Below, piece by piece: positions 4,791 through 59,200 of a DNA stretch of 64,000 nucleotides. This DNA comes from Squalus acanthias. Its lineage: Eukaryota. Both the position numbers and the translations under genes were made by a program. The stretch covers positions 135,224,001-135,288,000 of the forward strand of contig CM059431.1 of assembly GCA_030390025.1 (NCBI GenBank), read 5' to 3'. The notes beneath the pieces were generated by a model, which searched no databases, was not told the origin of the DNA, and saw only the letters and a program-made list of their open reading frames with translations. Positions within the stretch are counted from its first letter, which is position 1; every line of letters begins with the position of its first letter.

Positions 4791-7235
4791 AGGTTGTGTT
4801 GCCTGCCCAGTGCCAGGGTTAAGGATATCTCGTCACAGCTGGAGAAGAACTTGGAGTGGGAGGGGGAGGATCCAGTGGTCGTGGTCCACGTAGGAACCAA
4901 TGACATAGGTAGAACTAGGAATGAGGTTCTGCTGAGGGAGTTTCAGCAGTTAGGGTCCAAATTAAAATGCAGAATCTCTGGATTGTTACCTAAGCCATGT
5001 GCAAATTGGCATAGGGACAGACAGATCAGAGAGTTAAATGCATGGCTCAAAGTGTGGTGTGGGAGGAAGGCGTTTCGATTCATGGGACACTGACATCAGT
5101 ACTTGGGAAAGAGGGAGCTGTTCCATTGGGATGGGCCCCACTTAAACTGGGCTGGGACCAGTGTCCTGGCGAACCGAACAACTAGGGCGGTAGATAGGGA
5201 TTTAAACTAATGAAGGGGGGTGGGTGGGAGGATTCAGGAAAGGGTAATTTCAAAAGCAGTAAGAGAAATGTCAAGGCTGCAGAGCAGTGCAGTGATCTGA
5301 GTAAAGATAAGCAGAATGTGTCAGGAAGGGTCAGAGAGATTAATGAAGGTAATAAGGCACCAGTGACTAAATTGGCTTCAGGGAAAAATAGAAAAAAGTT
5401 AAAGCTAAAGGTACTATATCTGAATGCGTGAAGCATTTGCAAAAAAATAGATGAATTAATAGCACAGATAGAAATAAATGGGTTTGATTTAATAGCCATT
5501 ACAGAGACATGGTTGCAGAGTGACCAAGGTTGTGAACTAAATATTCCAGGATATTTCAGGATATTTGACTTTTAGAAGAGACAGGTAGAATGGAAAATGA
5601 GGGGGAGGGGGTAGTCCTGATAATAAAGGAAGGGATAAAGAGAGTAGAGAGAAATTATTTTGGCTCAGAAAAACAAAATGTAGAATCAGTTTGGGTGGAG
5701 CTAAGACACAACAAGGGACAGAAAACACTAGTGGGAGTGATCTATAGGCCCCCGAACAGTGGTTGTAGTGTCGGGCAGAGTATAAATCAGGAAATTAGAG
5801 ATGCATGTAACAGGGAAAATACAATAATCATGGGGGACTTTAACTTTCATACAGACTGGGCAAACCAAATTTGCAGGAAGAGTTCATGGAATGCATTCAA
5901 GATAGTTTTCTAGATCAGTATGCCGAAGAACCTACTAGGAAACTGGCTATTTTAAATCTAGTATTGTGCAATAAGACAGGGTTAATTAATAACCTTGTAG
6001 TAAAGGAGCCTCTAGGGAGCAGTGATCCAAATATGATAGAATTTTATGTTGTGTTTGAGAGTGATTTAGTTAAGTCTGAAACTAGGGTCCTAAATCTGAA
6101 CAAAGCAAACTACGAAGGTATGAGAGGCGAGTTGGCTAAGGTAGGTTGGAAAACTAGATTAAAAGATATGACAGTAGAAAAGGAATGGCAAACATTTAAA
6201 GAAACAATTTATAATTCGCAATGAATATACATTCTCTTAAGGAATAAAGAGGGCAAAATTGGTTCGCGCCCCCTTGGGGCGCGAATTTCGCTACTTTTAG
6301 CACCCCGAAAAAGTTAGCAGCCCCACGCCCAAAAGTTAGCGTCCCGGCTCCCTCTTGGGGTGCTACGAGTGAATATCGCGGTGCTACGTGTGGCGCTGCG
6401 GCAAATTGTGCCGTGGTACTGCAGGCCTTCCTCCCCTTATTAAAGTGGAGGGGCCTAGTGCAGCGCGACCCAGGGCCCAGCTGGGCCACCAGGGATCAGA
6501 GTGCCGGCAAAAGAGCCCGGCACTCAAGAGAAGTGCCGGGTTCACAGAGCGCAGCCAGCACCCGACGGGGGTGCTGAAGAGGAGGCCGGGGACAGCAACG
6601 GGGGCAGGTGCTGGCAGGCGGCCAGCAAAAAAAGGGCTGCCCGGCACCTCCCCTGTAATTTGCGCCGCCCTGGCCACAGGTAGACCCCCTGACCCTGTCG
6701 GACATAGCATCCGACGGTAAGTCAGGGGGCGCTACCGAAGATCGCGGCCGGGGCGTGTGTGAGGCGCTGCGCACGGCGATGACATCATCGCTGGAGGTGT
6801 AGCACTCGGGGCGCTAATGGTTACCGCCACCGCTAACCTCCCGCTGAATTTTGGGCGCTAACGGGAGGCGCAAATTAAACACATTTTCCCCAAAAAAACT
6901 CCACGAGAAAAATGGTCCACCCGTGGCTAACAAGAGAAATTAAAGATAGTATTAGATTAAAGGAAGAGGCCTATAATGTTGCCAATAAGAGTAGTAAGCC
7001 TGAGGATTGAGACGATTTCAGAATTTAACGAAGGAGGACCAAGAAATTGATAAAGAAACGGAAAATAGAATATGAGAGTAAACTAGCGAGAGACATAAAA
7101 ACAGACTGTAAAAGCTTCAATAGGTATGTAAAAAGGAAAAGATTAATAAAATTAAACATTGGTCCCTTACAGGCTGAGACATGAGAAATTATAATGGGGA
7201 ATAAGGAAATGGCTGAGAAATTAAACAAATACTTT
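4790..7235 (+). mobile_element. Degenerate CR1 LINE (ORF1 esterase end, ORF2 APE endonuclease), interrupted by a MITE
   Basis: Motifs VVVHVGTND, LYLNA, ITETWL, VIYRPPNS and MGDFN; frameshifted. Ends where a Harbinger-derived element starts at 7236. Confidence 0.9.
6249..6891 (+). mobile_element. GC-rich Harbinger-like MITE, family A (older copy)
   Basis: Homologous to 8408-9179. Degenerate TIRs GAGGGCAAAATT / CATTTTCCCC in AAA flanks. The host CR1 resumes on the other side. Confidence 0.85.
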
Positions 7236-16018: not shown

Positions 16019-19000
16019 AGTGTAATAATACCATGCCACAGTTACAGTTTAAACACTGCAGAGATTTTTTTGTTAGTTAGATTTACATCTGAAGTTGAAA
16101 CTGAAGAGGAGGTGATGCAATTTTTACTCTGAGATCTGAAGGTTTAATACCTCTCCTTCATTCTTTGCCACTAATCTAATATTGCTGCAAATCACGAGGT
16201 ATGGCAGGGCAGCTCACACCCGTGGAATGCACATCCTGTGCCATGTGGGAAGTCCTGGATACCTCCCGTGGTCTGGATGACCACATGTGCAGGAAGTGTC
16301 GCCAGCTACAGCAGCTCGAGCACTGGGTTACGGAGCTTGAGCGGCGGCTGCAGTCACTGCTGTGCATCCGCGAGGCTGAGAGCTACGTGGGAAGCACGTT
16401 TCGGGAGGTGGTCACCCCGCAGCTTAAGAGTGTGCAGGCAGAGAGGGAATGGGTGACCGTCAGACAGAAGAGGAGGACCAGGCAGGTAGTGCAGGAGTCC
16501 CCTGAGCCCATCTTGCTCACCAACCAGTATTCGGTGCTGAGTACTGGTAAGGGCGATGGTTCCTCTGGGGAGTGCAGCCAGAGCCAGGTCCACAGCACCA
16601 TGGAAGGCTCAGCTGCACAGACGGTGGGGGGGGTGGGAGGTGGGGGTGCGGTGGTGGAAGAGGAAAGGGAGAGCAATAGTGATAGGGGATTCAATAGTTA
16701 GGGGAGCGGACAGGCATTTCTGCAGCCGCAGACATGACTCCAGGATGGTATGTTGCCTCCCTGGTTCCAGGGTCAAGGATGTCACTGAACGGCTGCAGGG
16801 CATTCTGAGGGGGGAGGGTGAACAGCCAGAGGTCGTGGTCCATATCGGTGCCAATGACATAGGCAGGAAGAGGGATGAGGTCCTGCAAGTAGAGTTTAGG
16901 GAGCGAAGAAAGAGGTTAAAAAGCAGGACCTTAAAGGTAGTCATCTCTAGATTACTCCTGGTGCCACGTGCTAGTGAGTACAGAAATAGGAAGATAGAGC
17001 AGATGAATGCGTGGCTGGAGAGATGCTGTAGGATGGAGGGCTTTAGATTCCTGAGGAATTGGAACCGTTTCTGGGGGAGGTGGGACCTCTACAAGCCAGA
17101 CGGGTTGCACCTCAACGGGAACGGGACCAATATCCTCGCGGGAGGGTTTGCTAGTGCTGTTGGGGAGGGTTTAAACTGGCTTGGCAGGGGGATGGGAGCC
17201 TAAGTATAGAGTCAATAGGGAGGGAAGATAAACTGGAATTGGAAAACAAAAACGTAGAAAGTAAATTGGAAGGACAGAGGAATCAAGGGCTAGATAGTAG
17301 TCAACAAGGAGGTTTGCCTGTACTAAATGGTATATACTTCAATGCAAGGAGTATAGCGAACAAGGCAGATGAGCTGAGGGCACAGGTAGATACTTGGGAC
17401 TATGATATTATAGCTATTACAGAGACGTGGCTGAAAGAGGGGCAGGTATGGCAGCTCAACATTCCTGGTTACAGGATTTTCAGACGGGATAGAGAGGGAG
17501 GTAAAAAGGGAGGGGGGGTCGTGGTGTTGATTAAAGAAACTATTATAGCTGTGAGGAAGGATGATATGTTGGAGGGATCATCAAACAAGGCCATATGGGT
17601 TGAATTGAAAAACAAAAAAGGGGCGATCACACTGCTGGGAGTATACTACGGACCCCCAAACAGTGAGAGGGAGATAGAAGAACAAATATGTAGACAAATT
17701 TCTGAGAAGTGCAAAAACTGTAGGGCAGTAATAGTAGGGGATTTCAACTACCCCAATATTAACTGGGATAAAATTAGTGTGAAGGGTATAGAGGGTGCGG
17801 AATTCCTAAAATGCATCCAGGAGAATTTTTTTAGCCAGTAGCAAGCCCAACAAGGGAGGGGGCGGTTCTGGACTTAGTTTTAGGGAATGAAGCTGGGCAG
17901 TGGGGGAGCATTTTGGTGCTAGTGACCATAATGCTGTTAGATTTAAGGTAGTTATGGAAAATGACAAGGATAGACCAGGAATAAAAATTCTAAATTGGGA
18001 AAAAGCAATTTTGCTCAGCTCAGAGGGGATTTAGCTATAGTGGACTGGAAACAGCTACTTGAAGGTAAATCAGTGTCAGAGCAGTGGGAGGCATTCAAGG
18101 AGGAGATCCGGAGGGTTCAGACCAAATATGTGCCCTTAAAGAAAAAAGGTGGGACTAACAAATCTAGAGCCCCCTGCATGTCTGGGGACATACAGGGTAG
18201 GATAAAGAAACAATGGGAGGCGTATGACAGATACCGAGGTCTAAATACTCCAGAATATTTAGAGGAGTACAGAAAGTGCAGGGGTGCAATTAAAAAGGAT
18301 AATAGGAAAGCAAAAATTCTTGGCAAGTAAAATCAAGAAAAACCCAAAGATGTTTTATAAATATATTAAGAGTAAGAGGATAACTAAAGAAAGGATAGGG
18401 CCTATCAGAGATCATGAGGGTAATCTGTGTGTGGAGGCGGGAGACGTCAGTAGGGTTCTTAATGAATACTTTGCACCTGTTTTCACAAAGGAGAGGGGCA
18501 AAGCAGACATTGCTATTGGGAGGAGGAGTGTGAAATATTAGATGAAATAAACATAGTGAGAGAGGAAGTATGAAGGGGTTTAGCAGCTTTAAAAGTGGAT
18601 AAATCCCCAGACCCGGATGAAATGTATCCCAGGCTGTTAAGCGAAGCAAAAGAGGAAATATCAGAGGCCCTGACCATCATTTTCCAATCCTCTCTGGCTT
18701 CAGGTGTGGTGCCGGAGGACTGGAGGACTACTAACGTGGTGCCCTTGTTTAAAAAGGGAGAAAAGGATAGACCGAGTAATTACAGGCCAGTCAGCCTAAC
18801 CTCGGTCGTGGGAAAATTATTGGAAAGAATTCTGAAGGACAGGATAAATCTTCATTTAGAAAGACACGGATTAATCAAGGATAGTCAGCACGGATTTGTT
18901 AAGGGAAGGTCGTGTCTGACAAACTTGATTGAATTTTTTTAGGCGGTAACAAAGAGGCTAGATGAGGGTAGTGCGCTTGATGTAGTTTATATGGACTTTA

Positions 19001-22967: not shown

Positions 22968-25900
22968 ATGTGGGACCAGATTGCCGAGGCGGTCACTGCC
23001 AGCAGTGTCATCCCCAGGACCTAGCTCCAGTGCCCAAAGAAGTTTCATGGTCTCAGATGAGTGGTCAAGGTCAGTGAATACATCTTCAAAAGCTGTCTCC
23101 TACCAACTGCATCACTAGCCTCACACACTGCTCAATGCACGACCCCCACCTGCCAATCACTCACATACCAACAATCTCTACTAAATACGAGGCAGACCTC
23201 ATGTTCCTAGCTTCACCTCATCCTGTTGGAGGAGATGGTGCTGGCCATTCTTGGCAGGGGCATGGCTGAGCCCTTGGCCAGTGCTGTTATCCTTCTTCTC
23301 ACATCCCACTTCCCCCTAATCCCATAAAATCTTCTGATGTAAAAGCTGCACATGGTGTAAGCGTGAACCTCTTCCTTTCCCGCCCTCCCCTCACCACATG
23401 CTTGTGCCTTCCTCATTTCACATACCCAAGAAATCCAGCCTGCCCAGCCAGTGGTTCACCAAGAAAAGGGAGAGTAGAATGACGAAGAAGAAGAAACACT
23501 GTCACTCGATTTCACACTCCCAGCCACCTGCTCCTCGAGGTTATCCTGCAAGGCCACCTGCAGTGTCCCGCACTGAAAGTCAGCAGCCTTCCACCAGCCA
23601 TGCTGCAGCCACTATGTAACATCACTTGGATAGGCAAAGGCACACACAAGACAGTCACTAAGAGGATGCACAAGGGTGATTAGTTGATTTTTTGATGTAA
23701 TATTGGATGCATATATGGATCCTACAGCAACAACCTCCATCCTCGAACTCTCTACCCTTCAAATAGCTTCTGGACTTCACTCACCTGCTTTGGACAGCCA
23801 TTCGTCGATGCTCCGTACCGGCCCCATCCTGCTCACATCGGCTTGTCCTTCCCTGGGACTTCTGACTTTGACCCTGGTCTTCCTACTATTGTCCCCAACC
23901 TATTCCCTGCTACCAGGAAATTTGTATTCCATTATTAGCTGAGCTTTTCCCGTGTCCATTCGCGTGCGCACTTTGGCTGCCGCTCCGGACCCGAGCCATT
24001 CCACTTTTATCCCCCCTATTTTCCTTTTCTCTCTATCCCTCCCTGAAAGCACTCTCCTGTCGTCATGCCTCCTTTCATCTCTCCTCTCTCGGATACACTG
24101 CCCTCTCAAATCCCTACCCCAATCCTTCATTACTCTTTGACCTTCCTACTCACCTGCCGCCATCCCAGGCTTCACTCCCTCTTAGATAAGCCCACAGCTT
24201 CCCTCTGTGCCTCTCTTGGCATCCTACCAAGGGACCATCGAGGCACTCGTCGCAGCCACCTTACGAGCAGCAACCCCAACTGTCTCATCCTACTCTCTCG
24301 CCGACCTTCCCGCCCAGCGCGCCCACTGGGGGCAAATCTTTCCAATCTCCTCCCCATCGAACTCATCCCCCCTAGCGCCCGACCCTCTCCGCATCTTCCT
24401 CCAGAATGTCCATTCACTTGTGAACAAGGCCCTTGCCACCCATGAGCTTATCGTGGGTGACTGCATCGATATCATGGACCTGACGGAAACTTGGTTGAGG
24501 AGTGATGACACCTCACCCTTAAACGAAGCCTCCCCGCCTGGCTATACCTTCCACCACTTGCCCCGCTCAGACCGTCGTGGTGGTGGTGTGGCCCTCATCA
24601 CCAAATCACACCTTGGTCTGTCCCCCTACTCCTCCGGTAGTTTCTCCTCCTTTGAGCATCTCACCTTATTCCACCCCTCTCACCTCTCATTTAAAATCCT
24701 TGTTCTCTACCGCCCACCCAAGTACCATAAAATGTTATTACTGAGATATCTTCACTGTTCTCCTCCCGCAGCCTCTGCACCGAACGACTTCTCATCCTCG
24801 GTGATTTCAACCTCCATCTCAATTCATCATGCTCTCTCTCCTTTGAGTTCACTAGACTCCTATCCTCCCTTAATCTCTCCCTCCATGTAAACTCCCCAAC
24901 CCACATTCACGGCCACCCCCTCGACCTTGCCGTCTCTCGTGGCCTCGCTACTCCCATCGTGTCAATTGCAGATAAGGCCATCTCTGACCACTTCCTCATA
25001 TCGCTCTCCACCCACATCCCCCTTCCACCCACCCCGCCACAACCCTACTTCCTTCTGTGTCCGCCCCTGGAAAAAACTCTCTCCCAACTCTCTTACAACT
25101 GCACTTATGAAATTCCAACTGTCCAGCCTCTGGCCCTCCATTCACCATGACATTTCTGCAGCTACCGATCTGTTCAACCACACCCTCACCACTATCTTTG
25201 ATGCCATAGTCCCTACTAAAACAATTACTCTCTCTCTCACCCTGGCCGTTCCCCTTGTATGGCTCTCACCTTCGCTCCCAAGGGACGCAGACTCAAATGG
25301 ATATGGCAGACAACTGGTTTAGCCATTCACCGCCAGATCTGGGTGGACCACATAAAGCACTATCGGGCCCTGCTCTCATCTGCCAAAATTGCTCGCTATT
25401 CTAGAATCATTCTGGAATGCAAAGATAAACCCTGGTTCCTATTCCCTGCTGCTCTTCCTAAACCTCTCTCCCATGTCTCCTCCACCCTCACCTCCGATAA
25501 CAAATGTGAGGAGCTCATGGACTTCTTTGTTTTTAAGATTGACACCATCCGTTCAGCTGCCTCTGCCACTTCCCTTCCTTCCCTAGCCCACTGGGCCAAA
25601 CTTCCTCTAAGGTTCCCCCTGCCCTAGCCCTGAACTCACATCTTTCTCCAGTTTCTCTCCGATCTCCCTTCATGACCTCTCTGTGCTCATCTTGTCAATG
25701 ATACCCACCTCCTGCACCCTCGACCCTATTCCCACCAAACTGCTGACCACCCAACTTCCTTTTCTGACTCCCATGTTAGCTGATATTGTTAACGGTTCTC
25801 TCTCCTCAGGTACTGTCCCCCTCTCCCTCAAATCTGCTGTCATCACCCCTCTCCTCAAAAAACCAAACCTTGATCCCTCCGTCCTTGCAAACTACCACCC

Positions 25901-28056: not shown

Positions 28057-29250
28057 ATACCTTTAGACATCCAGGGAGTTATAGCTTAGGATGCCTTTCC
28101 CTTCACTCTCGTGGGAACATATCTAGTCTGTACCTGAACTATCTCCTCCTTGAAGGCCTCCCATTGCTCATTTACTGTTTTACCTCCCAATCTTTGAATC
28201 GATTTCCACCTGAGCCAGATCCATTTTCAACTCACTGAAATTAGCCCTCCTCCAGCTTAGTATTTTCACGTTTAATTGTTCCTTGTCCTTTTCCATAACT
28301 ACTCTAAACTTAATAATATTGTGATCACTATTTCCCAAATGCTTCCTCACTGAAACATGCTGCACTTGCCCCACTTCATTCCCTAGAACCAGATCCAGTG
28401 CTGCTTCCTTCCTTGATATGATAGCAAAATACTGCGGATGCTGGAAATCCGAAATAACAACAGAAAATGCTGGAAAAACTCAGCAGGCCAGACAACATCC
28501 GTGGAGAGAGAAACAGAGTTAACGTTTCAGGTCGAAACCCTTCGTCGGAACCAACGAAGGGTTTCGACCTGAAACGTTAACTCTGTTTCTCTCTCCACTG
28601 ATGTTGCCTGGCCTGCTGAGTTTTTCCAGCATTTTCTGTTGTTATTTCTGTTTCCTTCCTTGTTGGGCTGGAAACACACTGCTCAAGAAAGTTCACTTGT
28701 ACACATTTCAGGAACTCGTCCCCCTCTTTACCCATAACGCTGTCATTTTCCAGTCTATGTTAGGATAATTGAAGTTTCCTATTATCACTACTCTCTAGTT
28801 CTTGCATCATTCTGTAATTTGCCTGCAAATTTGTTCCTCTATCTCCTTCCCACTATTTGGGAGCCTATAGTAAACACTCAGCAGCGTAATAGCTGCTCTA
28901 TTGTTCGTTAATTCTTACCAAGTACATCATCCCTTTCCAGTGCTGTAACAGTATATTTGACCAATAGTGCCACCCCTTCCTTTTGTTCCTGTCCTATCTT
29001 TCCTGAATAACTTGTAGTCAGGAATATTAAGTTCCCAATCCTCCCCTTGTCTGAGCCAGGTCTCTGTTATTGCCTCTATATCACAGCCCCATGTGGCAAG
29101 TTGTGTCTGCAGCTCACCAACCTTATTTACAATACTCCATGCATTTATGCACATGCACTCCAATCCTATCCTAGCCTGCCTTGCATTTTACTCCCTGTAC
29201 GATCCCTCCTATATCTGAACTACTCTATGTTCTAATTGCTATGCAGGACA
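28057..29250 (-). mobile_element. Degenerate CR1 endonuclease-region fragment
   Basis: INAWSIVNK..ITETWL and LGNSDHN peptides. Confidence 0.85.
28416..28648 (-). mobile_element. Short Penelope-derived fold-back insertion (second family) with degenerate hammerhead motifs
   Basis: 95-bp arms 28451-28545 and 28554-28648, and a 35-nt tail at 28416-28450. 14-bp TSD TGCTTCCTTCCTTG / TGTTTCCTTCCTTG. Confidence 0.85.
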
Positions 29251-44100: not shown

Positions 44101-44386
44101 CTCTGTCCCTTCCTGACCCACTCTGCTGAGTTTTACCCAAAACTCTAGTCTGCTCTAGAGCCTTGGCATTTCTCTTGCTGCTTTTAAATTTACTCTTTCC
44201 TGAATCCTCCCATCCCCCCTTCATTAGTTTAAAGCACTATCTACTGCCCTAGTTATTCGGTTCGCCAGGACACTGGTCCCAGCCTGGTTTCAGTGGAGTC
44301 CGTCCCAACGGAACAGCTCCCTCTTTCCCCAGTACTGGTGCCAGTGCCCCATGAACTGAAACCCCTTCCTCCCACACCACTCATTA
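41151..44386 (-). mobile_element. 5'-truncated degenerate CR1 LINE (end of ORF1, whole ORF2)
   Basis: EN and RT motifs across ORFs 41323-44224. Flanked by a TCTAAT duplication (41145-41150, 44387-44392). Confidence 0.92.
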
Positions 44387-47174: not shown

Positions 47175-47408
47175 AGAGGCCAGAGTTGGAGGAAAACAGA
47201 GTTTTCAGCAGGATTTAGGACTGAAGGAGGTTAGAGATGAGGAGGGGGTGAGGCCATGGAGGGATTTCAACACAAAGATGAGAATTTTAAATTAATGCGT
47301 TGGTGGACTGGGAGCCAAGGTTGGTTAGCAAGCAGAAGGCTAATGGTTGAAAGAGACTTGGTGTGAGTTAGGATACAGGCAGCTGAGTTTTGGATGAGTT
47401 CAAATTTA

Positions 47409-47911
47409 TAGTGATAGGGGACTCAATTGTAAGGGGAATAGACAGGAGTTTCTGTGGCCGCAACCGAGATTCCAGGATGGTATGTTGCCTCCCTGGTGCA
47501 AGGGTCAAGGATGTCTCGGAGCGGCTGCAGAACATTCTGAAGAGGGAGGGTGAACAGCCAGCTGTCGTGGTGCATGTAGGTACCAACGATATAGGTAAAA
47601 AGCGGGAAGAGGTCCTACAAGCAGAATTTAGGGAGCTAGGAGCTAAATTAAAAAGTAGGACCTCTAAGGTAGTAATCTCTGGATTGCTACCAGGGCCACG
47701 TGCTAATCAGAATAGAGAGAACAGGATAGTGAGATTGAATACGTGGCTTGAGCAGTGGTGCAGGAGGGAGGGATTCAAATTCCTGAGGCATTGGAACCAG
47801 TTCTGGGGGAAGTGGGACCTGTACAAAAGGGACGGTCTGCACTTGGGCAGGACTGGAACCGATGTCCTCGGGGTAATATTTGCTAAAGCAGTTCGGGAGG
47901 ATTTAAACTAA
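47409..47911 (+). CDS. CR1 ORF1 C-terminal SGNH/GDSL esterase domain (5'-truncated, no native start)
   Basis: VIGDSIVRG, PGARV, HVGTND and DGLHL blocks; stop TAA at 47909-47911. Confidence 0.85.
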
Positions 47912-47958
47912 TATGGCAGGGGAATGGGAACCTATGTAGCGAAACAGGGGGAAGTAAT

Positions 47959-50895
47959 ATGCAGTCAGAAACAAATGTTAGAAGGGTGAGAAACAATAGG
48001 GGAAGGCCGAGTAAACAAAGGCAAGAAACACAAAGGGCCATACTAAATCATAAGTCTAAAAGGACAAAGGATGTTAATAAAACAAGCCTAAAGGCTCTGT
48101 GTCTTAATGCAAGGAGTATCCGTAATAAGGTGGATGAATTGACTGTGCAAATAGATGTTAACGGATACGATGTGATTGGGATTACAGAGACGTGGCTCCA
48201 GAACAATCAAGGCTGGGAACTGAACATCCAGGGGTATTCAACATTCAGAAAGGATAGAATAAAAGGAAAAGGGGGTGGGGTAGCATTGCTGGTTAAAGAG
48301 GAGATTAATGCAATAGCTAGGAAGGACATCAGCTTGGAGGATGTGGAATCAATATGGGTTGAGCTGCAGAACACCAAAGGGCAGAAAACGTTAGTGGGAG
48401 TTGTGTACAGACCTCCAAACAGCAGTAGTGAGGTGGGGGAGGGTATGAAACAGGAAATCAGAGGTGCGTGCAAAAAAGGCACGGCAGTTATCATGGGTGA
48501 CTTTAATATGCATATAGATTGGGCTACTCAAACTGAAAGCAATACGGTGGAGGAGGATTTCCTGGAGTGTTTAAGGGATGGTTTCCTAAACCAATATGTT
48601 GAGGAACCAACTCGAGGGGAGGCCATCCTGGACTGGGTGTTGTGTAATGAGGAAGGACTAATCAGCAATCTTGTGGTACGAGGCCCCCTGGGGAAGAGTG
48701 ACCATAGTATGGTGGAGTTCTACATTAGGATGGAGAAGGAAACAGTTAAGTCAGAGACCATGGTCCAGAACTTAAATAAGGGCAACTTTGAGGGTATGAG
48801 GCGTGAATTGGCGAGGTTAAATTGGCAAGCGATATTTAAGGGGCTATCAGTGGAAGGGCAATGGCAGACATTTAGAGATCGCATGGATGAACTACAACAA
48901 TTGTACATCCCGGTCTGGCGTAAAAATAAAAAAGGGAAGGTGGCTCAACCATGGCTAACAAGGGAAATCAGGGATAGTATTAAAACCAAGGAAGTTGCAT
49001 ACAAATTGGCCAGAAGTAGCAGCAAACCCGGGGACTGGGAGAACTTCAAAACTCAGCAGAGGAGGACGAAGGGTTTGATTAGGGCAGGGAAAATAAAATA
49101 TGAAAGGAAGCTTGCAGAGAACATTAAAATGGACAGCAAAAGCTTCTATAAATATGTAAAAAGAAAGAGGTTAGTAAAAACAAACGTAGGTCCCCTGCAG
49201 TCGGAAACAGGGGAAGTCGTAATGGGGAACAAGGAAATGGCAGATCAATTGAACAAGTACTTTGGTTCGGTGTTTACTGTGGAGGACACACACAACCTGC
49301 CGGAAATAAAAGGGGTCAGAGGATCTGGTAAGAGGGAGGAGCTGAGGGAAATCCTTATTAGTCGGGAAAAGTTATTGGGGAAATTGATGGGACTGAAGGC
49401 TGAAAAATCCCCAGGGCCTGATGGTCTGCATCCCAGAGTACTTAAGGAGGTGGCCTTGGAAATAGTGGATGCATTGACAATCATTTTCCAACATTCCTTA
49501 GACTCTGGATCAGTTCCGATGGAGTGGAGGGTGGCCAATGTAACCCCTCTTTTTAAAAAAGGAGGGAGGGAGAAAGCAGGGAATTATAGACCGGTCAGCC
49601 TGACATCGGTTGTGGGTAAAATGATGGAAGCAATTATTAAAGATGTCATAACAGACCATTTGGAAAGTGGCGACATGATAGGTCCAAGTCAGCATGGATT
49701 TGTGAAAGGGAAATCATGCTTGACAAATCTTCTGGAATTTTTTGAGGATGTTTCCAATAGGGTGGACAGGGGGGAACCAGTAGATGTGGTGTATTTGGAC
49801 TTTCAGAAGGCCTTCGACAAGGTTCCACACAAGAGATTGGTGAGCAAAGTTAAAGCACATGGGATTGGGGGTAATGTGTTGACGTGGATTGAGAACTGGT
49901 TGGCACACAGGAAACAAAGAGTAGGAGTAAATGGGTACTTTTCAGAATGGCAGGCAGTGACCAGCGGGGTACCGCAGGGTTCGGTGCTGGGACCCCAGCT
50001 GTTTACATTATATATTAATGATTTGGACGAAGGGATTAAATGTAATATCTCCAAATTTGCGGATGACACTAAATTGGGAGGCAGTGTGAACAATGAGGAG
50101 GATGCTAGGAGGCTACAGAGTGACTTGGACAGGTTGGGTGAATGGGCAAATGTATGGCAGATGAAGTACAATGTGGATAAATGTGAGGTTATCCACTTTG
50201 GTGGTAAAAATAGAGAGGCGGACTATTACCTGAATGGTGGCAGATTAGGGAAAGGGGAGGTGCAACGAGACCTGGGCATCATGGTACATCAGTCATTGAA
50301 GGTGGGAATGCAAGTGCAGCAGGCAGTCAAGAAAGCAAACGGAATGATGGCCTTCATAGTAAGGGGATTTGAGTACAGGAGTAGGGAGGTGATGCTGCAG
50401 TTGTACAGGGCCTTGGTGAGGCCACACCTGGAGTATTGTGCGCAGTTTTGGTCTCCTAACTTAAGGAAGGACATTCTTGCTATTGAGGGAGTGCAGCGAA
50501 GGTTCACTAGATTGATTCCTGGGATGGCCGGACTGACATATCAAGAAAGATTGGGTCAACTGAACTTGTATCCTCTGGAGTTCAGAAGAATGAGGGGGGA
50601 TCTTATAGAGACATTTAAAATCCTGACTGGTTTAGACAAATTAGATGCGGGCAGAATGTTCCCAATGGTAGGGAAAACTAGAACCAGGGGTCACAGTCTA
50701 AGGATTAAGGGGAAGCCATTTAGGACTGAGCTGAGGAGGAACTTCTTCACCCAGAGAGTGGTGAATCTATGGAATTCTCTTCCACAGAAGATTGTTGAGG
50801 CCAGTTCGCTAAATATATTCAAAAGGGAGTTAGATATAACACTCACAACTAGGGGGATCAAGGGGTATGGCGAGAAAGCAGGAATGGAGTACTGA
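47959..50895 (+). CDS. CR1 ORF2: APE-type endonuclease plus reverse transcriptase (978 aa; the frame is open upstream to 47902)
   Basis: LNARS, ITETWL, YRPP, GDFN and SDH (EN); [28 protein letters not shown] and FADD (RT). No stops. Confidence 0.96.
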   Translation: MQSETNVRRVRNNRGRPSKQRQETQRAILNHKSKRTKDVNKTSLKALCLNARSIRNKVDELTVQIDVNGYDVIGITETWLQNNQGWELNIQGYSTFRKDRIKGKGGGVALLVKEEINAIARKDISLEDVESIWVELQNTKGQKTLVGVVYRPPNSSSEVGEGMKQEIRGACKKGTAVIMGDFNMHIDWATQTESNTVEEDFLECLRDGFLNQYVEEPTRGEAILDWVLCNEEGLISNLVVRGPLGKSDHSMVEFYIRMEKETVKSETMVQNLNKGNFEGMRRELARLNWQAIFKGLSVEGQWQTFRDRMDELQQLYIPVWRKNKKGKVAQPWLTREIRDSIKTKEVAYKLARSSSKPGDWENFKTQQRRTKGLIRAGKIKYERKLAENIKMDSKSFYKYVKRKRLVKTNVGPLQSETGEVVMGNKEMADQLNKYFGSVFTVEDTHNLPEIKGVRGSGKREELREILISREKLLGKLMGLKAEKSPGPDGLHPRVLKEVALEIVDALTIIFQHSLDSGSVPMEWRVANVTPLFKKGGREKAGNYRPVSLTSVVGKMMEAIIKDVITDHLESGDMIGPSQHGFVKGKSCLTNLLEFFEDVSNRVDRGEPVDVVYLDFQKAFDKVPHKRLVSKVKAHGIGGNVLTWIENWLAHRKQRVGVNGYFSEWQAVTSGVPQGSVLGPQLFTLYINDLDEGIKCNISKFADDTKLGGSVNNEEDARRLQSDLDRLGEWANVWQMKYNVDKCEVIHFGGKNREADYYLNGGRLGKGEVQRDLGIMVHQSLKVGMQVQQAVKKANGMMAFIVRGFEYRSREVMLQLYRALVRPHLEYCAQFWSPNLRKDILAIEGVQRRFTRLIPGMAGLTYQERLGQLNLYPLEFRRMRGDLIETFKILTGLDKLDAGRMFPMVGKTRTRGHSLRIKGKPFRTELRRNFFTQRVVNLWNSLPQKIVEASSLNIFKRELDITLTTRGIKGYGEKAGMEY

Positions 50896-51764
50896 GGTAG
50901 CATGTTCAGCCATGAACGCATTGAATGGCGGTGCAGGCTCGAAGGACCGAATGGTCTACTCCTGTACCTATTTTCTATGTTTCTATGTTTCTATGGAGGG
51001 TGGACGATGGGAGAGCATTGAAATAGTTAAGCCTGGAGTTGACAAAGGCATGGATGAGGGATTCAACGGCAGATGGAGTGAGGTAGGGGTAGTGAGGGGT
51101 GATGTTATGGAGGTAGAAGTAGACAGTCTTTGTAATGGCAAGACATGGAGTCAGAAGCTCAGTTCGGGGTTAAATAGGATGCTGAGGTTGCGAACATTCT
51201 GGTTCAGCCTGAGACAGTGGTCAAGGAGAGAGATTGACTCAGTGGCTAGGGAACAGCGTTCGTACCGGGGGCCAAAGACTCTGCTTTCATCTTCCCAATG
51301 TGTAATTGTAGGAACTTTTGCCCACCCAGAACTGGAAGTTGGATAAACAGTCTGAAAGCAGGTCGAGAGAGGTAGTGGTGAGATAAAGTGTTAAGATCGG
51401 CTGGGCCTCTGTGTTCCCGGCCTTGGCGGGTTCTTCCCACACTCCCATGCTTCCCAGCACCCTCCCCTCCTCCCTGTTAATATCAGGGCCCATGTCTTTG
51501 CATCATGTCGCCGAGGGGCAGCAAATAGATGAGAAATAGGAGGGGGCCAGGGATAGATCCTTGGGGACTACAGAGGTAATGACACAGGGACAGGAAGAGA
51601 AGCCATTGCAGGAGATTCTCTGGCTATGACTGGATAGGCAAGAATGGAACCAGGTGAGGGCAGTCCCACTCAACTAGACAATGGAAGAGAGACATTCGAG
51701 GAGGATGGTGTGCTCAACCATGTCCAAGGCTGCAGAGAGATCGAGAAGGATGAGGAGGGATAGT

Positions 51765-52960: not shown

Positions 52961-55900
52961 CTTTGTGTCCTTCTCACAACTTGCTTTCCCACCTATCTTT
53001 GTATCATCAGCAAATTTGGCTACAGTACACTCAGTCCCTTCATCCAAGTCATTAATACAGATTGTAAATAGTTGAGGCCCCAGCACTGATCCCTGTGGCA
53101 CCCCACTAGTTACAGTTTGCCAACCTGAAAATGACCCATTTATCCCGACTCTCTGTTTTCTATTAGTTAGCCCATCCTAATCCATGCTAATATATTACCC
53201 CCAAAACCATGAGCTCTTATCTTGTGCATTAACCTTTAATGTGGCACCTTATTGAATGCCTTTTAGAAATCTAAATTCACTACATCTACTGGTTCCCCTT
53301 TATCCACCCTGCTCGTTATGTCCTCAAAGAACTCTAATAAATTTGTCAAACACAATTTCCCTTTCATGAAACCATGTTGACTCTGCTTGATTGTATTATA
53401 ATTTTCTAAATGCCCTGCTATTACTTCTTTAATAATGGATTCCAGCATTTTCCCAATGACAGATGTTAGGCTAACTGGCCTATAGTTTCCTGCTTTCTGT
53501 CTCCCTCCTTTCTTGAATATGGGCGTTACATTTGCGGTTTTCCAATCCAATGGGACCTTTCCAGAGTCTAGGGAATTTTGGAAGATTACAACCAATGCAT
53601 CCATTATCTCTGCAGCCACTTCTTTTAAAGCACTAGGATGCAGGCCACCAAGTCCAGGGGACATGTCAGCCTTTAGTCCCATTAGTTTATCTAGTACTTT
53701 TTCTCTAGTGATAGTGATTGTTTTAGTTCTTCCCTCCTCTTTGCCCCTTGATTTTCCACTATTATTGGGATGCTTTTACTGTCTTCTACTGTGAAGACAG
53801 ATACAAAATATTTGTTAAAAGTCTCTGCCATTTTCTTGTTTCCCATTATTAATTCCCCAGTCTCATCCTCTAAGGGACCAACGTTTACTTTAGCTACTCT
53901 CTTCCTTTTTTCTAGCTTTTTATATAGCTTTAACTGTCTGTTTTTATATTTCTTGCTAGTTTACTCTCATAATCTATCTTCTCCCTCTTTATTTCTTTTT
54001 AGTCATCCTTTGCAAGTTTCTAAAAATTTTCCATTCTTCTAGCCTACCACTAAACTTTGCAACATTGTATGCCTTTTCTTTCAATTTGCTACCCTCCTTA
54101 ACTTTCTTAGTTAGCCACAGATGGTTCATCCTTCTCGTAGAGTCTTTCTTTCTCATTGGAATATATCTTTGTTGAGAGTTATGAAATATCTCCTTAAAAG
54201 TCTGCCACTGCTTATCTACTGTTTTACCTTTTAATCTATTTTCCCAGTCCACTTTAGCCAACTCTGTCTTCATACCCTTGTAATTGCCTTTATTTAAGTT
54301 TAGGACACTAGTTTCACACCCAAGTTTCTCACCCTCAAACTGAATGTGAAATTCTATCATGTTATGATCGCTCTTCCCTTGAGGATCCTTTACTATGAGA
54401 TCATTAATTAATTCTGTCTCATTACACATTACTAGATCAAAAATAACCTGTTCCCTGGTCGGTTCCACAATGTATTGTTCTAAGAAACTGTCCTGAATAC
54501 ACTCTATGAACTCGTCCTCAAGGCTACCTTTGCCAATTTGATTTGTCCAATCTATATGAAGATTAAAATCGCCCACGATTATTGCAGTACCTTTCTTACA
54601 AGCTCTCATTATTTCTTTATTTATACTCTGTCCCACAGTGTAGCTACTGTTAGGGTGCCTATAGATGACTCCCACCAATGACTTCTTTCCCTTATTATTT
54701 CTTATCTCCACCCAAACTGATTCTACATTTTGATCATCCGAGCCAAGATCATTTCTCACTACTGTACTGATCTCATCCTTTATTAACAGAGCTAGCCCAC
54801 CTCCTTTTCCTTTCTGCCTATCCTTCCGAAATGTCAAATACCCCTGAATATTCAGTTTCCAGCCTTGGTCACCTTGCAGCCACGTCTCTGTAATGGCTAT
54901 CAGATCATACCCATTTATTTCTATTTGTACCGTCAATTCATCTATCTTGTTACAAATGCTGTGTGCATTCAGATAAAGAGCCTTTAATGTTGTCTTTTTA
55001 CCATTTTTCGCTACTCTGACCCGATTTGCTGGTGCACTCTCATGCTTGTACGCTCTGTCCCTTCCTGTCACACTCTGGTTATGAGAACCCCTATCGCTAC
55101 CCTGCACTATTGCCTTGTCCTTTCTCTTTAACTTTCTAAATTTCCCCTCACCTGAACCCTTCCCCCCACTATTTAGTTTAAAGCCCTATCTACAGCCCTA
55201 GTTATTCGATTCGCCAGGACACTGGTCCCAGCACGGTTCAAGTGAAGCTCATCCCAACGGAACAGCTCCCTCTTACCCCAGTACTGATGCCAGTGCCCCA
55301 TGAATCAAAACCCATTTCTCCCACACCAATCCTTGAGCCACACATTCATCTCTCTGATCTTATTGACTCTATGCCAATTTGCTCGTGGCTCAGGTAGTAA
55401 TCCAGAGATTATTACCTTTGTGGTTCTGCTTTTTAATTTAGCCCCTAGCTGCTCATACTCCCTCAGCAGAACCTCTTTCTTAGTCCTACCTATGTAGTTG
55501 GTACCTACGTGGACCATAACAACTGGATCCTTCCCCTCCCACTCCAAGTTCCTCTCTGTCCCCAAGGAGATGTCCTTAACCCTGGCAGGCAACATAGCCT
55601 TCAGGACTCACGCTCTCGGCTGCAGAGAACAGTATCTATCCCCCTAACTATACTGTCCCCTACCACTACTACATTCCTTTTTACTCCCACAACTTGAATG
55701 GCCCCCTATACCATGGTGCTGTGGTCAGTTTGCTCATCTCCCTGCAGTTCCTGCTCTCGTCCACACAGGCTGCAAGTACCTCGTACCTGTTGCAATGGCT
55801 GAGGCTCCTCCAATGCTACCTTCTGGATCCCCATACCTGCCTCAGTTGTAGTCACACCCTCCTGTCCCTGACCACGGACCAAATCTGAAGTATTTAACCT

Positions 55901-56276: not shown

Positions 56277-59200
56277 ATAAGATCATGGCTGATTTTCTAC
56301 CTCAACTCCACCTTCCCGCACTATCCCCATATCAGTTTAATATCCAAAAATCTATCGATCTCTGTCTTGAATATACTCAACAACTGAGCATCCACAGCCC
56401 TCTGGGGTAGAGAATTCCAAAGATTCACCACCCTCTGAGTGAAGAAATTTCTCCTCATCTCAGTCCTAAATGGCCGACCCCTTATTCTGAGACTGTGACC
56501 CCTAGTTCTAGACTCCCCAGCCAGGGGAAACATCCTCCCTGCATCTACCCTGTCAAGCCCTGTAAGAATTTTATATGTTTCAATGAGATCACCTCTCCTT
56601 CTTCTAAATTATAGGGAATATAGGCCTAGTCTCTTCAATCTTTCCTCATAGGACAATTGCCCCATCCCAGGAATCAGTCTGGTGAACCTTTGTTGCAAAT
56701 AAGGTAAATAAGACAAGTATATCCTTCCTTAGGTAAGGAGACCAAAACTGTACACAGTACTCCAGGTGTGGTCTCACCACGCCCTATATAATTGCAGTAA
56801 GACTTCTTTATTCTTGTATGCCAATCCTTTTGCAATAAAGGCTAACATACCATTTGCTTTCCTAATTGCTTGCTGTCCCCACATGTTAAATTTCAGTGAT
56901 TCGTGTATGAGGACACCCAGGTCCCTCTGAACAGCAACATTTCCCAATCTCTCAACATTTAAAAAATATTCTGCTTTTCTATTTTTCCGACCAAAGTGGA
57001 TAACTTCACATTTCTCCACATTATATTCCATCTGCCAAGCTCTTGCCCACTCACTTAATTTGTCCACATCTCTTTGCAGCCTCTTTGCATCCTCTTCACT
57101 ACTTACTTTCCCACCCAGCTATGTATCGTCTGCAAACTTGGATACATCACACTTGGTCCCCTTATCTAAGTCATTGATATAGATTGTAAATAGCGGAGGC
57201 CCAAGCACTGATCCTTGCAGTATCCCACTAGTTACAGCCTGCCAACCCGAAAATGACCCGTTTATTCACTCATTAGTAACAATACTGTGGAGGAGGAATT
57301 CCTAGAGCGTATACGGGATGGTTTCCTGGACCAATATGTCGAGGAACCAACTAGAGATCAGGCCATCTTAGACTGGGTATTATGTAATGAGAAAGGATTA
57401 ATTAGCAATCTTGTTGTGCGAGGCCCCCTGGGGAGGAGCGATCATAATATGATAGAATTCTTCATTAAGATGGAGAGTGAAGTAGTTGACTCAGAGACTA
57501 GGGTGCTGAATTTAAATAAAGGAAACTAAGATGCTATGAGGCGCGAGTTGGCTAGGATGGATTGGGGAATGTTACTTAAAGGGTTGACGGTGGATAGGCA
57601 ATGGCAAACATTTAAAAATCGCATGGATGAACTACAGAATTTGTTCATCACTGTTTGGCATAAAAATAAAACAGAAAAGGTGACTCAACCGTTGCTAACA
57701 TGGGAAATTAGGGATAGCATAAGATCCAAGGAGAGGACATATAAATTGGCCAGAAAAAGCAGCAAACCTGAGGATTGGGAGCAGTTTAGGATTCAGCAAA
57801 TGAGGACAAAGGGATTAATTAAGAGGGGGAAAATAGAGTATGAGAGTAAGCTTGCAGGGAACATAAAAACTGACTGTAAAAGCTTCTATAGATATGTGAA
57901 GAGAAAAAGATTGGTGAAGTCAAGCGTAGGTCCCTTGCAGTCAGAATCAGGGGAATTTATAATGGGGAACAAAGAAATGGCAGACCAATTAAATACATAC
58001 TTTGGTTCTGTCTTCACAAAGGAGGAGACAAATAAACTCCCAGAGATGTCAGGGAACATAGGGTCTAATGAGAGGGAGGAACTGAATGAAATCAGTATTT
58101 GTAGGGAAATGGTGTTAGGGAAATTGATGGGATTGAAGGCCAAGAAATACCCAGGGCATGATAATCTACATCCTAGGGTACTTAAGTAAGTGGCTCTAGA
58201 AATAGTAAATGCATTGCTGATCATCTTCCAAAATTCTATAGACTCTGGAACAGTTCCCATGGATTGGAGGGTAGCTAATGTAACCCCACTATTTTAAAAA
58301 GGTGGTAGAGAGAAAATGGGGAATTATAGACCGGTAAGCCTGACATCGGTAGTGGGGAAAATGCTAGAGTCCATTATAAAAGATGTAATAGCAGAGCACT
58401 TGGAAAACAGTGACAGGATCGGACAAAGTCAACATGGATTTACAAAAGGTAAATCATACTTGACTAATCTACTGGAATTTTTTGAGGATGTAACTGGTAG
58501 AATAGATAAGGGAGAACCAGTGGATGTGGTGTATTTGGACTTTCAGAAGGCTTTCGATAAGGACCCGCATAAGAGATTAGCGTGCAAAGTTAAAGCACAT
58601 GGGATTGGGGGTAAGGTACTGACTCGGATAGAAAACTGGTTGGCAGACAGGAAGCAAAGAGTTGGAATAAACGGGTCTTTTTCCGAGTGGCAGGCAGTGA
58701 CTAGTGGGGTACCGCAGGGATCGGTGTTAGGACCCCAGTTATTCACAATATATATTTATGATCTAGACGAGGGAACTCGATGTAATATCTCCAAGTTTGC
58801 AGACAACACAAAGCTGGGTGGGCGTGTGTGCTGTGAGGTGGATGCAGAGAAACTCCAGTATGATTTGGACAGGTTGGGTGATTGGGAAGATGCAGTATAA
58901 TGTGGATAAATGCGAGGTTATCCACTTTGGTGATAAAAACAGGAAGGCAGATTATTATCTGAATGGCAATAGATTGGGAAAAGGGGAAGTGCAACGAGAC
59001 CTGGGTGTCCTTGTGCACCAGTCGCTGAAGGTAAGCATGCAGGTGCAGCAGGCGGTTAAGAAGGCAAATGGTATGTTGGCCTTCATAGCGTGAGGATTCG
59101 AGTACAGGAGCAAGGATGTCTTGCTGCAGTTGTACAGGGCCTTGGTGAGACCACACCTTGAGTATTGTGTGCAGTTTTGGTCGCCTTATCTGAGGAAGGA

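Follow-up and report, generated by a model that had tools for sequence, protein, structure and literature searches.

A conserved UUUAAAC heptamer at the ORF1 stop codon of CR1 retrotransposons as a candidate site of programmed −1 frameshifting into ORF2

In the shark Squalus acanthias, LINEs (long interspersed nuclear elements) of the CR1 type carry a candidate site of programmed −1 ribosomal frameshifting where their first open reading frame (ORF1) meets their second (ORF2). CR1 predominates among the LINEs of birds, reptiles and cartilaginous fishes. A stretch of 64,000 nucleotides (nt) of this genome (GenBank assembly GCA_030390025.1, 3.7 Gb; contig CM059431.1, positions 135,224,001 to 135,288,000; hereafter the window) contains exactly five 3′ ends of the esterase-type ORF1, as found by a tblastn scan, and at all five the heptamer TTTAAAC (UUUAAAC in the RNA) stands in the same phase, T_TTA_AAC, on the last two ORF1 codons. 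Frameshifting at this heptamer probably produces an ORF1-ORF2 fusion protein, as is suggested by the retention of heptamer and phase among diverged elements and by the lack of a dependable ORF2 start codon.

The junction at 47902 belongs to a young CR1-type copy on the + strand. The 3′ part of its ORF1 (47387..47908) encodes an SGNH/GDSL esterase domain (Pfam Lipase_GDSL_2, E = 6e-14) and matches the ZfL2-1 esterase (PDB 4c1b, E = 1.7e-32); 174 codons are open in this 5′-truncated copy, and sister copies have a full ORF1 of 314 amino acids (aa). The upstream frame reads ...GAG GAT TTA AAC TAA, so that the wobble T of GAT and the last two sense codons, Leu-Asn, form T_TTA_AAC (47902..47908) in X_XXY_YYZ phase. 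The heptamer is abutted by the ORF1 stop TAA (47909..47911), which is TAG in a sister family, and a conserved G-rich tract, GGGG AAT GGG (47919..47928), begins 10 nt past it. ORF2 lies in the −1 frame relative to ORF1 (47887..50895; 1002 codons plus stop, open from 47887 to 50892), opens just 5 codons upstream of the heptamer and encodes an apurinic/apyrimidinic (AP) endonuclease (Exo_endo_phos, E = 1.4e-13) followed by a reverse transcriptase (RT; RVT_1, E = 3.8e-34). Its first in-frame ATG (47959..47961), 19 codons past the start of the heptamer, occupies a position that is not kept in sister families. The 3′ end of the element is marked by 3.6 units of a terminal octamer repeat, CTATGTTT (50968..50995). 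An 8-nt repeat at the 3′ end is named for CR1 in the accessible text of one source (PMC2612034), and the esterase type is given as the sole identifiable ORF1 type in CR1 and L2 in the available part of a 2026 survey (PMC13343379). By their esterase ORF1, their endonuclease/RT ORF2 and their 8-nt 3′ repeat, which is of CR1 rather than L2 style, these elements are CR1-group LINEs.

A short ORF of 9 codons in the +1 frame relative to ORF1 (47912-47938; MAGEWEPM, then stop) begins 1 nt after the ORF1 stop of this copy. The letters at 47912-47938 are similar in related families (GGCAGGGG..TGGGA.CC), with the ATG present or absent, and the conservation looks to be at the nucleotide level or at the level of the ORF2 frame (W-Q-G).

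Three of the other four junctions belong to one family, A: GAT_TTA_AAC_TAA with a TAATG stop/start overlap at 5201..5210 (+), in a decayed copy whose −1 frame is open for 77 codons; GCT_TTA_AAC_TAA, again with TAATG, at 44224..44233 (−), open for 182 codons; and GCT_TTA_AAC_TAA at 55173..55182 (−), open for 398 codons. The fourth, at 17170..17179 (+), is of an older, family-B-like type and reads GGT_TTA_AAC followed by TGG, the stop having been lost, with a −1 frame open for 228 codons. A sequence-only reading of the window had proposed the heptamer, its X_XXY_YYZ phase and an open −1 frame leading into ORF2 at all five places, together with a preceding codon that varies and keeps its wobble T (GAT, GGT, GCT, GAT and GCT at 5201, 17170, 44233, 47902 and 55182, respectively), G-runs downstream of each site, the absence of in-frame ATGs ahead of the endonuclease from the copies at 17170 and 55182, TAATG at 5208 and 44226 and an ATG at 47959. 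All of this is borne out by the letters; the TGG that replaces the stop in the 17170 copy had escaped that reading. At the window junctions a stop closes the −1 frame 1-5 codons before the heptamer, and from there the frame stays open into ORF2. As a word, TTTAAAC is about as frequent in the window as chance predicts (12 matches, 11.5 expected), and 5 of the 12 occurrences fall exactly on the last two ORF1 codons. The signal is one of position and phase, not of abundance.

The window is rich in LINE copies. Other LINE ORF2 fragments in it, at 12375-12927 (−), 28652-29172 (−), 24384-24823 (+) and 57272-57418 (+), have no ORF1 junction, being 5′-truncated or of another type. The fragment at 12.9 kb is a 5′-truncated copy of the 17170-type family that starts just downstream of the junction, and that at 24.4 kb looks like a different LINE type.

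Beyond the window, the junction was read as DNA in a total of 65 loci: the 5 of the window, 2 from a random 50-kb sample of the genome, 29 further copies of the young family, two targeted sets of 12 and 7 loci that were picked by protein search with ORF1 from other S. acanthias families, and 10 from metagenome contigs. They represent about 7 families from S. acanthias and, among the metagenome contigs, about 7 lineages that are amniote-like or shark-like. TTTAAAC is present in 64 of the 65 and GTTAAAC in one (L036). The heptamer stands in X_XXY_YYZ phase of ORF1 in 59 loci, one of them with G_TTA_AAC, and the remaining 6 have one extra G upstream. A stop codon directly abuts it in 56 of the 59 in-phase loci, as TAA, TAG or TGA according to lineage. 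Since the stop is free to change beside an invariant heptamer, the constraint sits on the nucleotides of the last two sense codons.

The family of the 47902 copy is very young, with at least 150 ORF1 matches at 99% identity in the genome, and its junction is identical in 30 of 30 loci. Both junctions from the random sample, which belong to another subfamily, read GGT_TTA_AAC_TAA, and T_TTA_AAC was found in 12 of 12 targeted loci of other families with intact ORF1. A family with an ORF1 of 316 aa, whose 7 copies are at least 98.7% identical, has CAT_TTA_AAC_TAG, and one with 317 aa has GGG_GGT_TTA_AAC_TAA. Contigs from four public sequencing runs, whose library type is not on record and which are silent on expression, contain no insertion or deletion at the heptamer and also include the sister variant CAT...TAG (47911 A>G).

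Metagenome contigs scanned with an ORF1 profile gave 34 loci with 25-41% ORF1 identity to the query. Ten of these retain an ORF1 end of the Leu-Asn (LN) type plus the following sequence, with T_TTA_AAC in nine and G_TTA_AAC in one; the next codon is TAG or TGA in nine and TGC in one (L054), and ORF2 is recognisable in the −1 frame in seven. Their closest ORF1s are from birds for six (48-68% identity), turtles for three (37-62%) and a shark for one (37%). The other 24 loci include some that end just before the junction (e.g., L038 and L043), some that are decayed and eight intact esterase ORFs. Three of the latter (L057, L058 and L059) are near-identical, end in ...TATGLLFTPK followed by TGA, lack the heptamer and have no recognisable ORF2 within 25-28 codons downstream; they may represent a different element type or a host gene.

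In the young element, 12.8% of Leu codons are TTA, 45.5% of Asn codons are AAC and 22% of third positions are T; for an independent lineage with a conserved Leu-Asn, the whole heptamer is then expected with a probability of about 1.5%. Apart from the terminal heptamer, the young family's 314-codon ORF1 has no XXXYYYZ (Y = A/T) in phase. A comparison of synonymous sites across diverged CR1 junctions, which the sequence-only reading had put forward, finds TTA_AAC with its wobble T kept in about 14 lineages, at ORF1 identities down to 25-41%, with the stop codon and the preceding residue varying.

The C-termini of related ORF1 proteins follow the same rule. A set of 220 distinct relatives was assembled from a word-indexed search (82 matches) and a profile search (the best 150 of 9674 at E ≤ 0.001), and 150 of them have SGNH block V plus a tail of 20-45 aa. 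Asn is the last residue of 110 tails, preceded by Leu in 93 (LN), Gly in 10 (GN), Lys in 3 (KN), Ser in 2, Glu in 1 and Phe in 1. As XXA encodes Leu, Gly or Lys when X is U, G or A, the LN, GN and KN ends imply the heptamers U_UUA_AAC, G_GGA_AAC and A_AAA_AAC. These three, together with G_GGU_UUU, are listed among the shiftiest for mammalian ribosomes in the accessible text of Atkins et al. (2016; PMC5009743). The last two are inferred from proteins: no relatives of the GN- or KN-type ORF1s were detected as DNA in the viral contigs or genome contigs searched, and the genome of the window has LN-type families only.

The residue upstream of these ends matches the first letter of the implied heptamer. 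Before LN it can take an NNT codon in 92 of 93 tails (G, A, Y, T, S, C, F, D, H, N, L or V), and 30 of these residues are amino acids that have NNY codons only. Before GN it is Gln nine times and Ser once, both compatible with NNG, and before KN it is Ser, Ser and Ala. Amino acids with NNR codons only occur once before LN, against a background of 16.7% in positions −12 to −4 (P = 8e-7), and the division of NNY-only and NNR-only residues between LN and GN/KN ends gives a Fisher p of 3.7e-8; both values overstate independence, the tails being phylogenetically related and grouping, at 50% identity, into 12 clusters. The largest of these by itself has 13 different residues before LN, and 55 of 56 tails fit the wobble rule. 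L313 and N314 do not vary in an alignment of 32 ORF1s, which were preselected for an LN or LNY end. Named ORF1s of the LN type belong to cartilaginous fishes (sharks, rays and a chimaera), a frog, reptiles (turtles, lizards and a snake) and two birds.

Eight further relatives (P0144, P0168, P0184, P0185, P0193, P0201, P0208 and P0212) have an internal ...(R/T/S/A/Q)KN about 25 residues past block V, followed by 10-13 more residues; an A_AAA_AAC heptamer may have been kept in this group while the stop moved downstream. Another, P0008, is a 294-aa LINE ORF1 esterase with an LN end and 59% identity to the shark ORF1, deposited under a bacterial species name, and is most likely vertebrate DNA in a bacterial assembly.

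No comparable constancy is seen in the start codons of ORF2. Among 18 junction sequences with enough downstream DNA, the first AUG in the ORF2 frame falls at codon 3, 3, 4, 19, 19, 22, 22, 28, 38, 44, 44 or 89, and 6 of the 18, two young families among them, reach the first endonuclease motif without one. In the 316-aa family (all 7 copies) and the 317-aa family, no in-frame AUG occurs through the LNARS and ITETW endonuclease motifs, so that an AUG-initiated ORF2 protein (ORF2p) would be missing catalytic residues. The first in-frame ATG of the youngest family is separated from the ORF1 stop by out-of-frame ATGs and the 9-codon ORF. A conserved restart AUG at or beside the stop is likewise absent. 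Between heptamer and endonuclease, the ORF2 frame has no stop in non-decayed copies and the other two frames have 2-14. An ORF2-frame AUG is not conserved, and the element has no dependable ORF2 start codon. The proposal of the sequence-only reading that ORF2 is expressed in gag-pol style gains support from these comparisons, namely the retained heptamer and phase, the LN, GN and KN tails and the unconserved AUG.

According to the proposed mechanism, a small fraction of the ribosomes translating ORF1 would slip back by one nucleotide on U_UUA_AAC, with tRNA-Leu moving from UUA to UUU and tRNA-Asn from AAC to AAA. The majority would terminate at the abutting stop to yield the ORF1 protein (ORF1p), and the slipped ribosomes would go on in the −1 frame to yield an ORF1p-ORF2p fusion. 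Such an arrangement would set a low ORF2:ORF1 ratio and physically tie the enzyme to the ORF1p/RNA particle; low efficiency would suit a LINE, of whose ORF2p little is needed. The abutting stop could act as a slowly decoded A site, in which case tRNA-Asn, with AAC in the P site, would get a second chance to shift from AAC to AAA. Across the tail types, the most constant feature is ...A_AAC followed by the stop. That the shift occurs, at what rate, and that the stop and a downstream G-run assist it, we infer from the sequences.

The G-run is itself conserved. A run of at least four G begins 7-11 nt past the heptamer in 18 of 19 sequences, where shuffling leads one to expect 0.03-0.18 per sequence, and the spacing is mostly 7 or 10 nt, which corresponds to one phase of the ORF2 frame. 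It may raise slippage. Shark sequences have almost no C downstream with which the G-run could pair, and bird-like contigs have a hairpin about 28 nt downstream, with 2 compensatory pairs among just 5 sequences. The G-run may be an arm of an undetected structure, a protein-bound G-tract, or simply codons for a Gly-rich linker.

Several observations weigh against frameshifting. Folding of the sequence downstream of the heptamer, suggested by the sequence-only reading, gave no convincing stimulatory structure: no stable conserved hairpin or pseudoknot was found, single-sequence fold z-scores lie around 0 with and without G-quadruplex energy, and two alifold runs gave consensus energies of just −2.1 and −4.6 kcal/mol with weak helices. 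Of 19 sequences, 13 contain a two-tier G-quadruplex motif and none a three-tier one; the two-tier motif is missing from the two youngest families (315 aa and 316 aa), one of which is the most prolific. Slip efficiency may be very low if no stimulator is present. The eight intact metagenome esterase ORFs (L050, L057-L059, L063-L065 and L069) have neither the heptamer nor an ORF2 detectable alongside and are possible exceptions to the junction rule. Forty of the 150 tails do not end in Asn, including teleost L2-like ones related to ZfL2-1. To these are added the relatedness of the tails and the protein-only basis of G_GGA_AAC and A_AAA_AAC given above. Finally, 11 of the 18 sequences have some ORF2-frame AUG before the endonuclease, and a SART1-like TAATG overlaps the stop in two of the five window copies.

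The last two points speak for termination-reinitiation or coupling, in which the 40S subunit would stay on the RNA after the ORF1 stop and restart nearby on ORF2, at a UAAUG as in SART1 or independently of AUG as in L1, with the heptamer kept for some other reason. Human L1 is reported to make ORF2 by AUG-independent reinitiation, so that a missing AUG is by itself compatible with this route. The stop kept directly at the junction in most in-phase loci would also fit, as would the in-frame ATG of L037, 4 codons past the heptamer start; SART1 coupling is described in the available part of a review (PMC3894237). Reinitiation is nevertheless unlikely. The scattered AUG positions, their absence from a third of the surveyed sequences and the out-of-frame ATGs and short ORF that precede the first in-frame ATG in the young family all count against it, and it predicts neither the choice of TTA, nor the wobble T, nor the pattern of LN, GN and KN ends with a matching upstream residue.

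A second alternative involves no recoding at all. The Leu-Asn end or an RNA motif would be kept for a protein or RNA function, for instance in the ORF1p C-terminus, in packaging or in the binding of ORF1p, and ORF2 would be translated by internal initiation, either at a non-AUG codon or in the manner of an internal ribosome entry site (IRES). The invariance of L313 and N314 in the preselected alignment is consistent with this explanation, and IRES-like options are discussed in the accessible text of the same review, where ORF2 initiation is called open (PMC3894237). It is very unlikely, however, as a constraint at the protein level leaves unexplained the exclusive use of TTA and AAC, the wobble T beside an amino acid that varies among 13 residues, the restriction of the alternative ends to GN after Gln and KN after Ser or Ala, and an ORF2 frame that is always −1 and opens within 1-5 codons of the heptamer.

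In some copies ORF1 and ORF2 are joined at the DNA level. The 317-aa family has a run of eight G (G8) before the heptamer, and five of its copies (L082, L083, L085, L086 and L087) have nine letters there (G9, or G7AG in one), which joins the frames of ORF1 and ORF2 into open stretches of 593-1280 aa; in a second family, L084 has G8 in place of G7 and a fused frame of 1211 aa. Long fused frames occur in about 5 of roughly 24 listed rows of the 317-aa family. Their existence with long intact frames speaks for a tolerated fusion protein. The fused copies, read over 205 nt, may be a subfamily, the result of recurrent homopolymer slippage, or partly assembly errors. A stingray gene model, P0032, reads in frame through the junction (...ASREG, then FKLNLQGAG...) into the endonuclease and is a DNA-level fusion copy from another species. 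The 860-aa bird gene model P0247, which clustered with an ORF1, was rejected as a junction fusion, being a spliced prediction. Slippage at the nucleic-acid level, with an RNA polymerase or reverse transcriptase adding one G upstream of the heptamer, would produce just such fused frames, and is the least probable of the alternatives: the upstream G-run is limited to two families and absent from the 315-aa, 316-aa, family-A, bird-like and turtle-like lineages, so that it is not the general mechanism, the heptamer's own T3 and A3 runs are not long enough for a polymerase to slip on, the contigs of the four sequencing runs lack any insertion or deletion there, and the G8/G9 differences, despite the copy with G7AG, could partly be assembly errors.

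Programmed −1 frameshifting at the CR1 junction would have a close parallel in coronaviruses, where the ORF1a/1b site (U_UUA_AAC in infectious bronchitis virus) has the identical heptamer and phase, the downstream ORF encodes the polymerase and a G-rich stretch follows a few nt past the site. The arterivirus slip heptamer is G_UUA_AAC. Coronavirus and arterivirus sites have a strong pseudoknot and a 0-frame stop that is not adjacent, whereas the CR1 junction has an abutting stop and no stable pseudoknot or hairpin that could be found; the hosts of those sites are RNA viruses, and CR1 is a cellular LINE. In 'shifty stop' −1 slippage of the potato virus M type, a slip-prone codon directly precedes a stop, and slow decoding favours slippage in the P site. 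CR1 resembles this in the constancy of A_AAC plus stop, as seen in the Asn-ended tails, but it also has a full tandem heptamer, so classical two-tRNA slippage is equally possible. SART1, with UAAUG coupling, and human L1, with reinitiation, also have bicistronic RNAs whose ORF2 depends on ribosomes that translated ORF1, and TAATG recurs in two window copies; they make separate ORF1p and ORF2p and need no slippery heptamer, whereas in CR1 the heptamer is conserved and the AUG is not.

In gag-pol systems, as covered in the accessible text of Atkins et al. (2016; PMC5009743), an upstream structural or accessory protein outnumbers the enzyme, which arises as a minor trans-frame fusion, as is proposed here for CR1, and the X_XXA_AAC family of heptamers implied by the LN, GN and KN termini is common. 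CR1 differs in having no long terminal repeat (LTR), no protease that would release the enzyme and an ORF1p of esterase/coiled-coil rather than Gag type. The sole LINE precedent found is that of TRE5-A and TRE3-A of Dictyostelium, which need a −1 frameshift according to the available part of the source (PMC5911963); they belong to a different clade and host, and no heptamer is named in that text.

Full-text searches brought up no mention of a slippery site or frameshift where ORF1 meets ORF2 in CR1, although an earlier remark is possible in the papers that first described CR1 (Haas, 1997; Kajikawa, 1997; Poulter, 1999; Kapitonov and Jurka, 2003) or in Repbase. In the parts of the sources at hand, HeT-A and TART are the only non-LTR elements named (Atkins et al., 2016; PMC5009743), and the word 'frameshift' is absent from the 2013 review of non-LTR protein biogenesis (PMC3894237), from a 2010 non-LTR review, from the 2026 CR1-group survey (PMC13343379) and from papers on the ZfL2-1 esterase and the Jockey-superfamily ORF1. 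Heptamer-type −1 frameshifting in retroelements is already known; what would be unusual here is that a stop abuts the heptamer and that a G-tract, with no evident pseudoknot, follows it. In the consulted portion of PMC5009743, natural G-quadruplex stimulators of frameshifting are described as expected, with none known so far. A far bolder proposal, and a doubtful one, is that the CR1 LINEs of jawed vertebrates (sharks, frogs, turtles, lizards, snakes and birds) have made their RT only as a −1 trans-frame fusion for more than 400 million years, at an X_XXA_AAC abutting the stop and stimulated by the stop and the G-tract instead of a pseudoknot, the G-tract being the first natural stimulator of the G-quadruplex type or a site for a trans-acting protein such as ORF1p.

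The translation of ORF2 in LINEs beyond L1 and SART1 is an acknowledged open question, and a canonical slip site at the ORF1 stop, present from sharks to birds, offers a concrete mechanism by which CR1 may synthesize its ORF2 product. For annotation, it implies that a start codon is unnecessary in defining CR1 ORF2. If the shift takes place, its abutting stop and conserved G-tract would be of interest to the recoding field, and the predicted ORF1p-ORF2p fusion would bear on cis-preference, on the assembly of the ribonucleoprotein particle and on the stoichiometry of ORF1 and ORF2 products.

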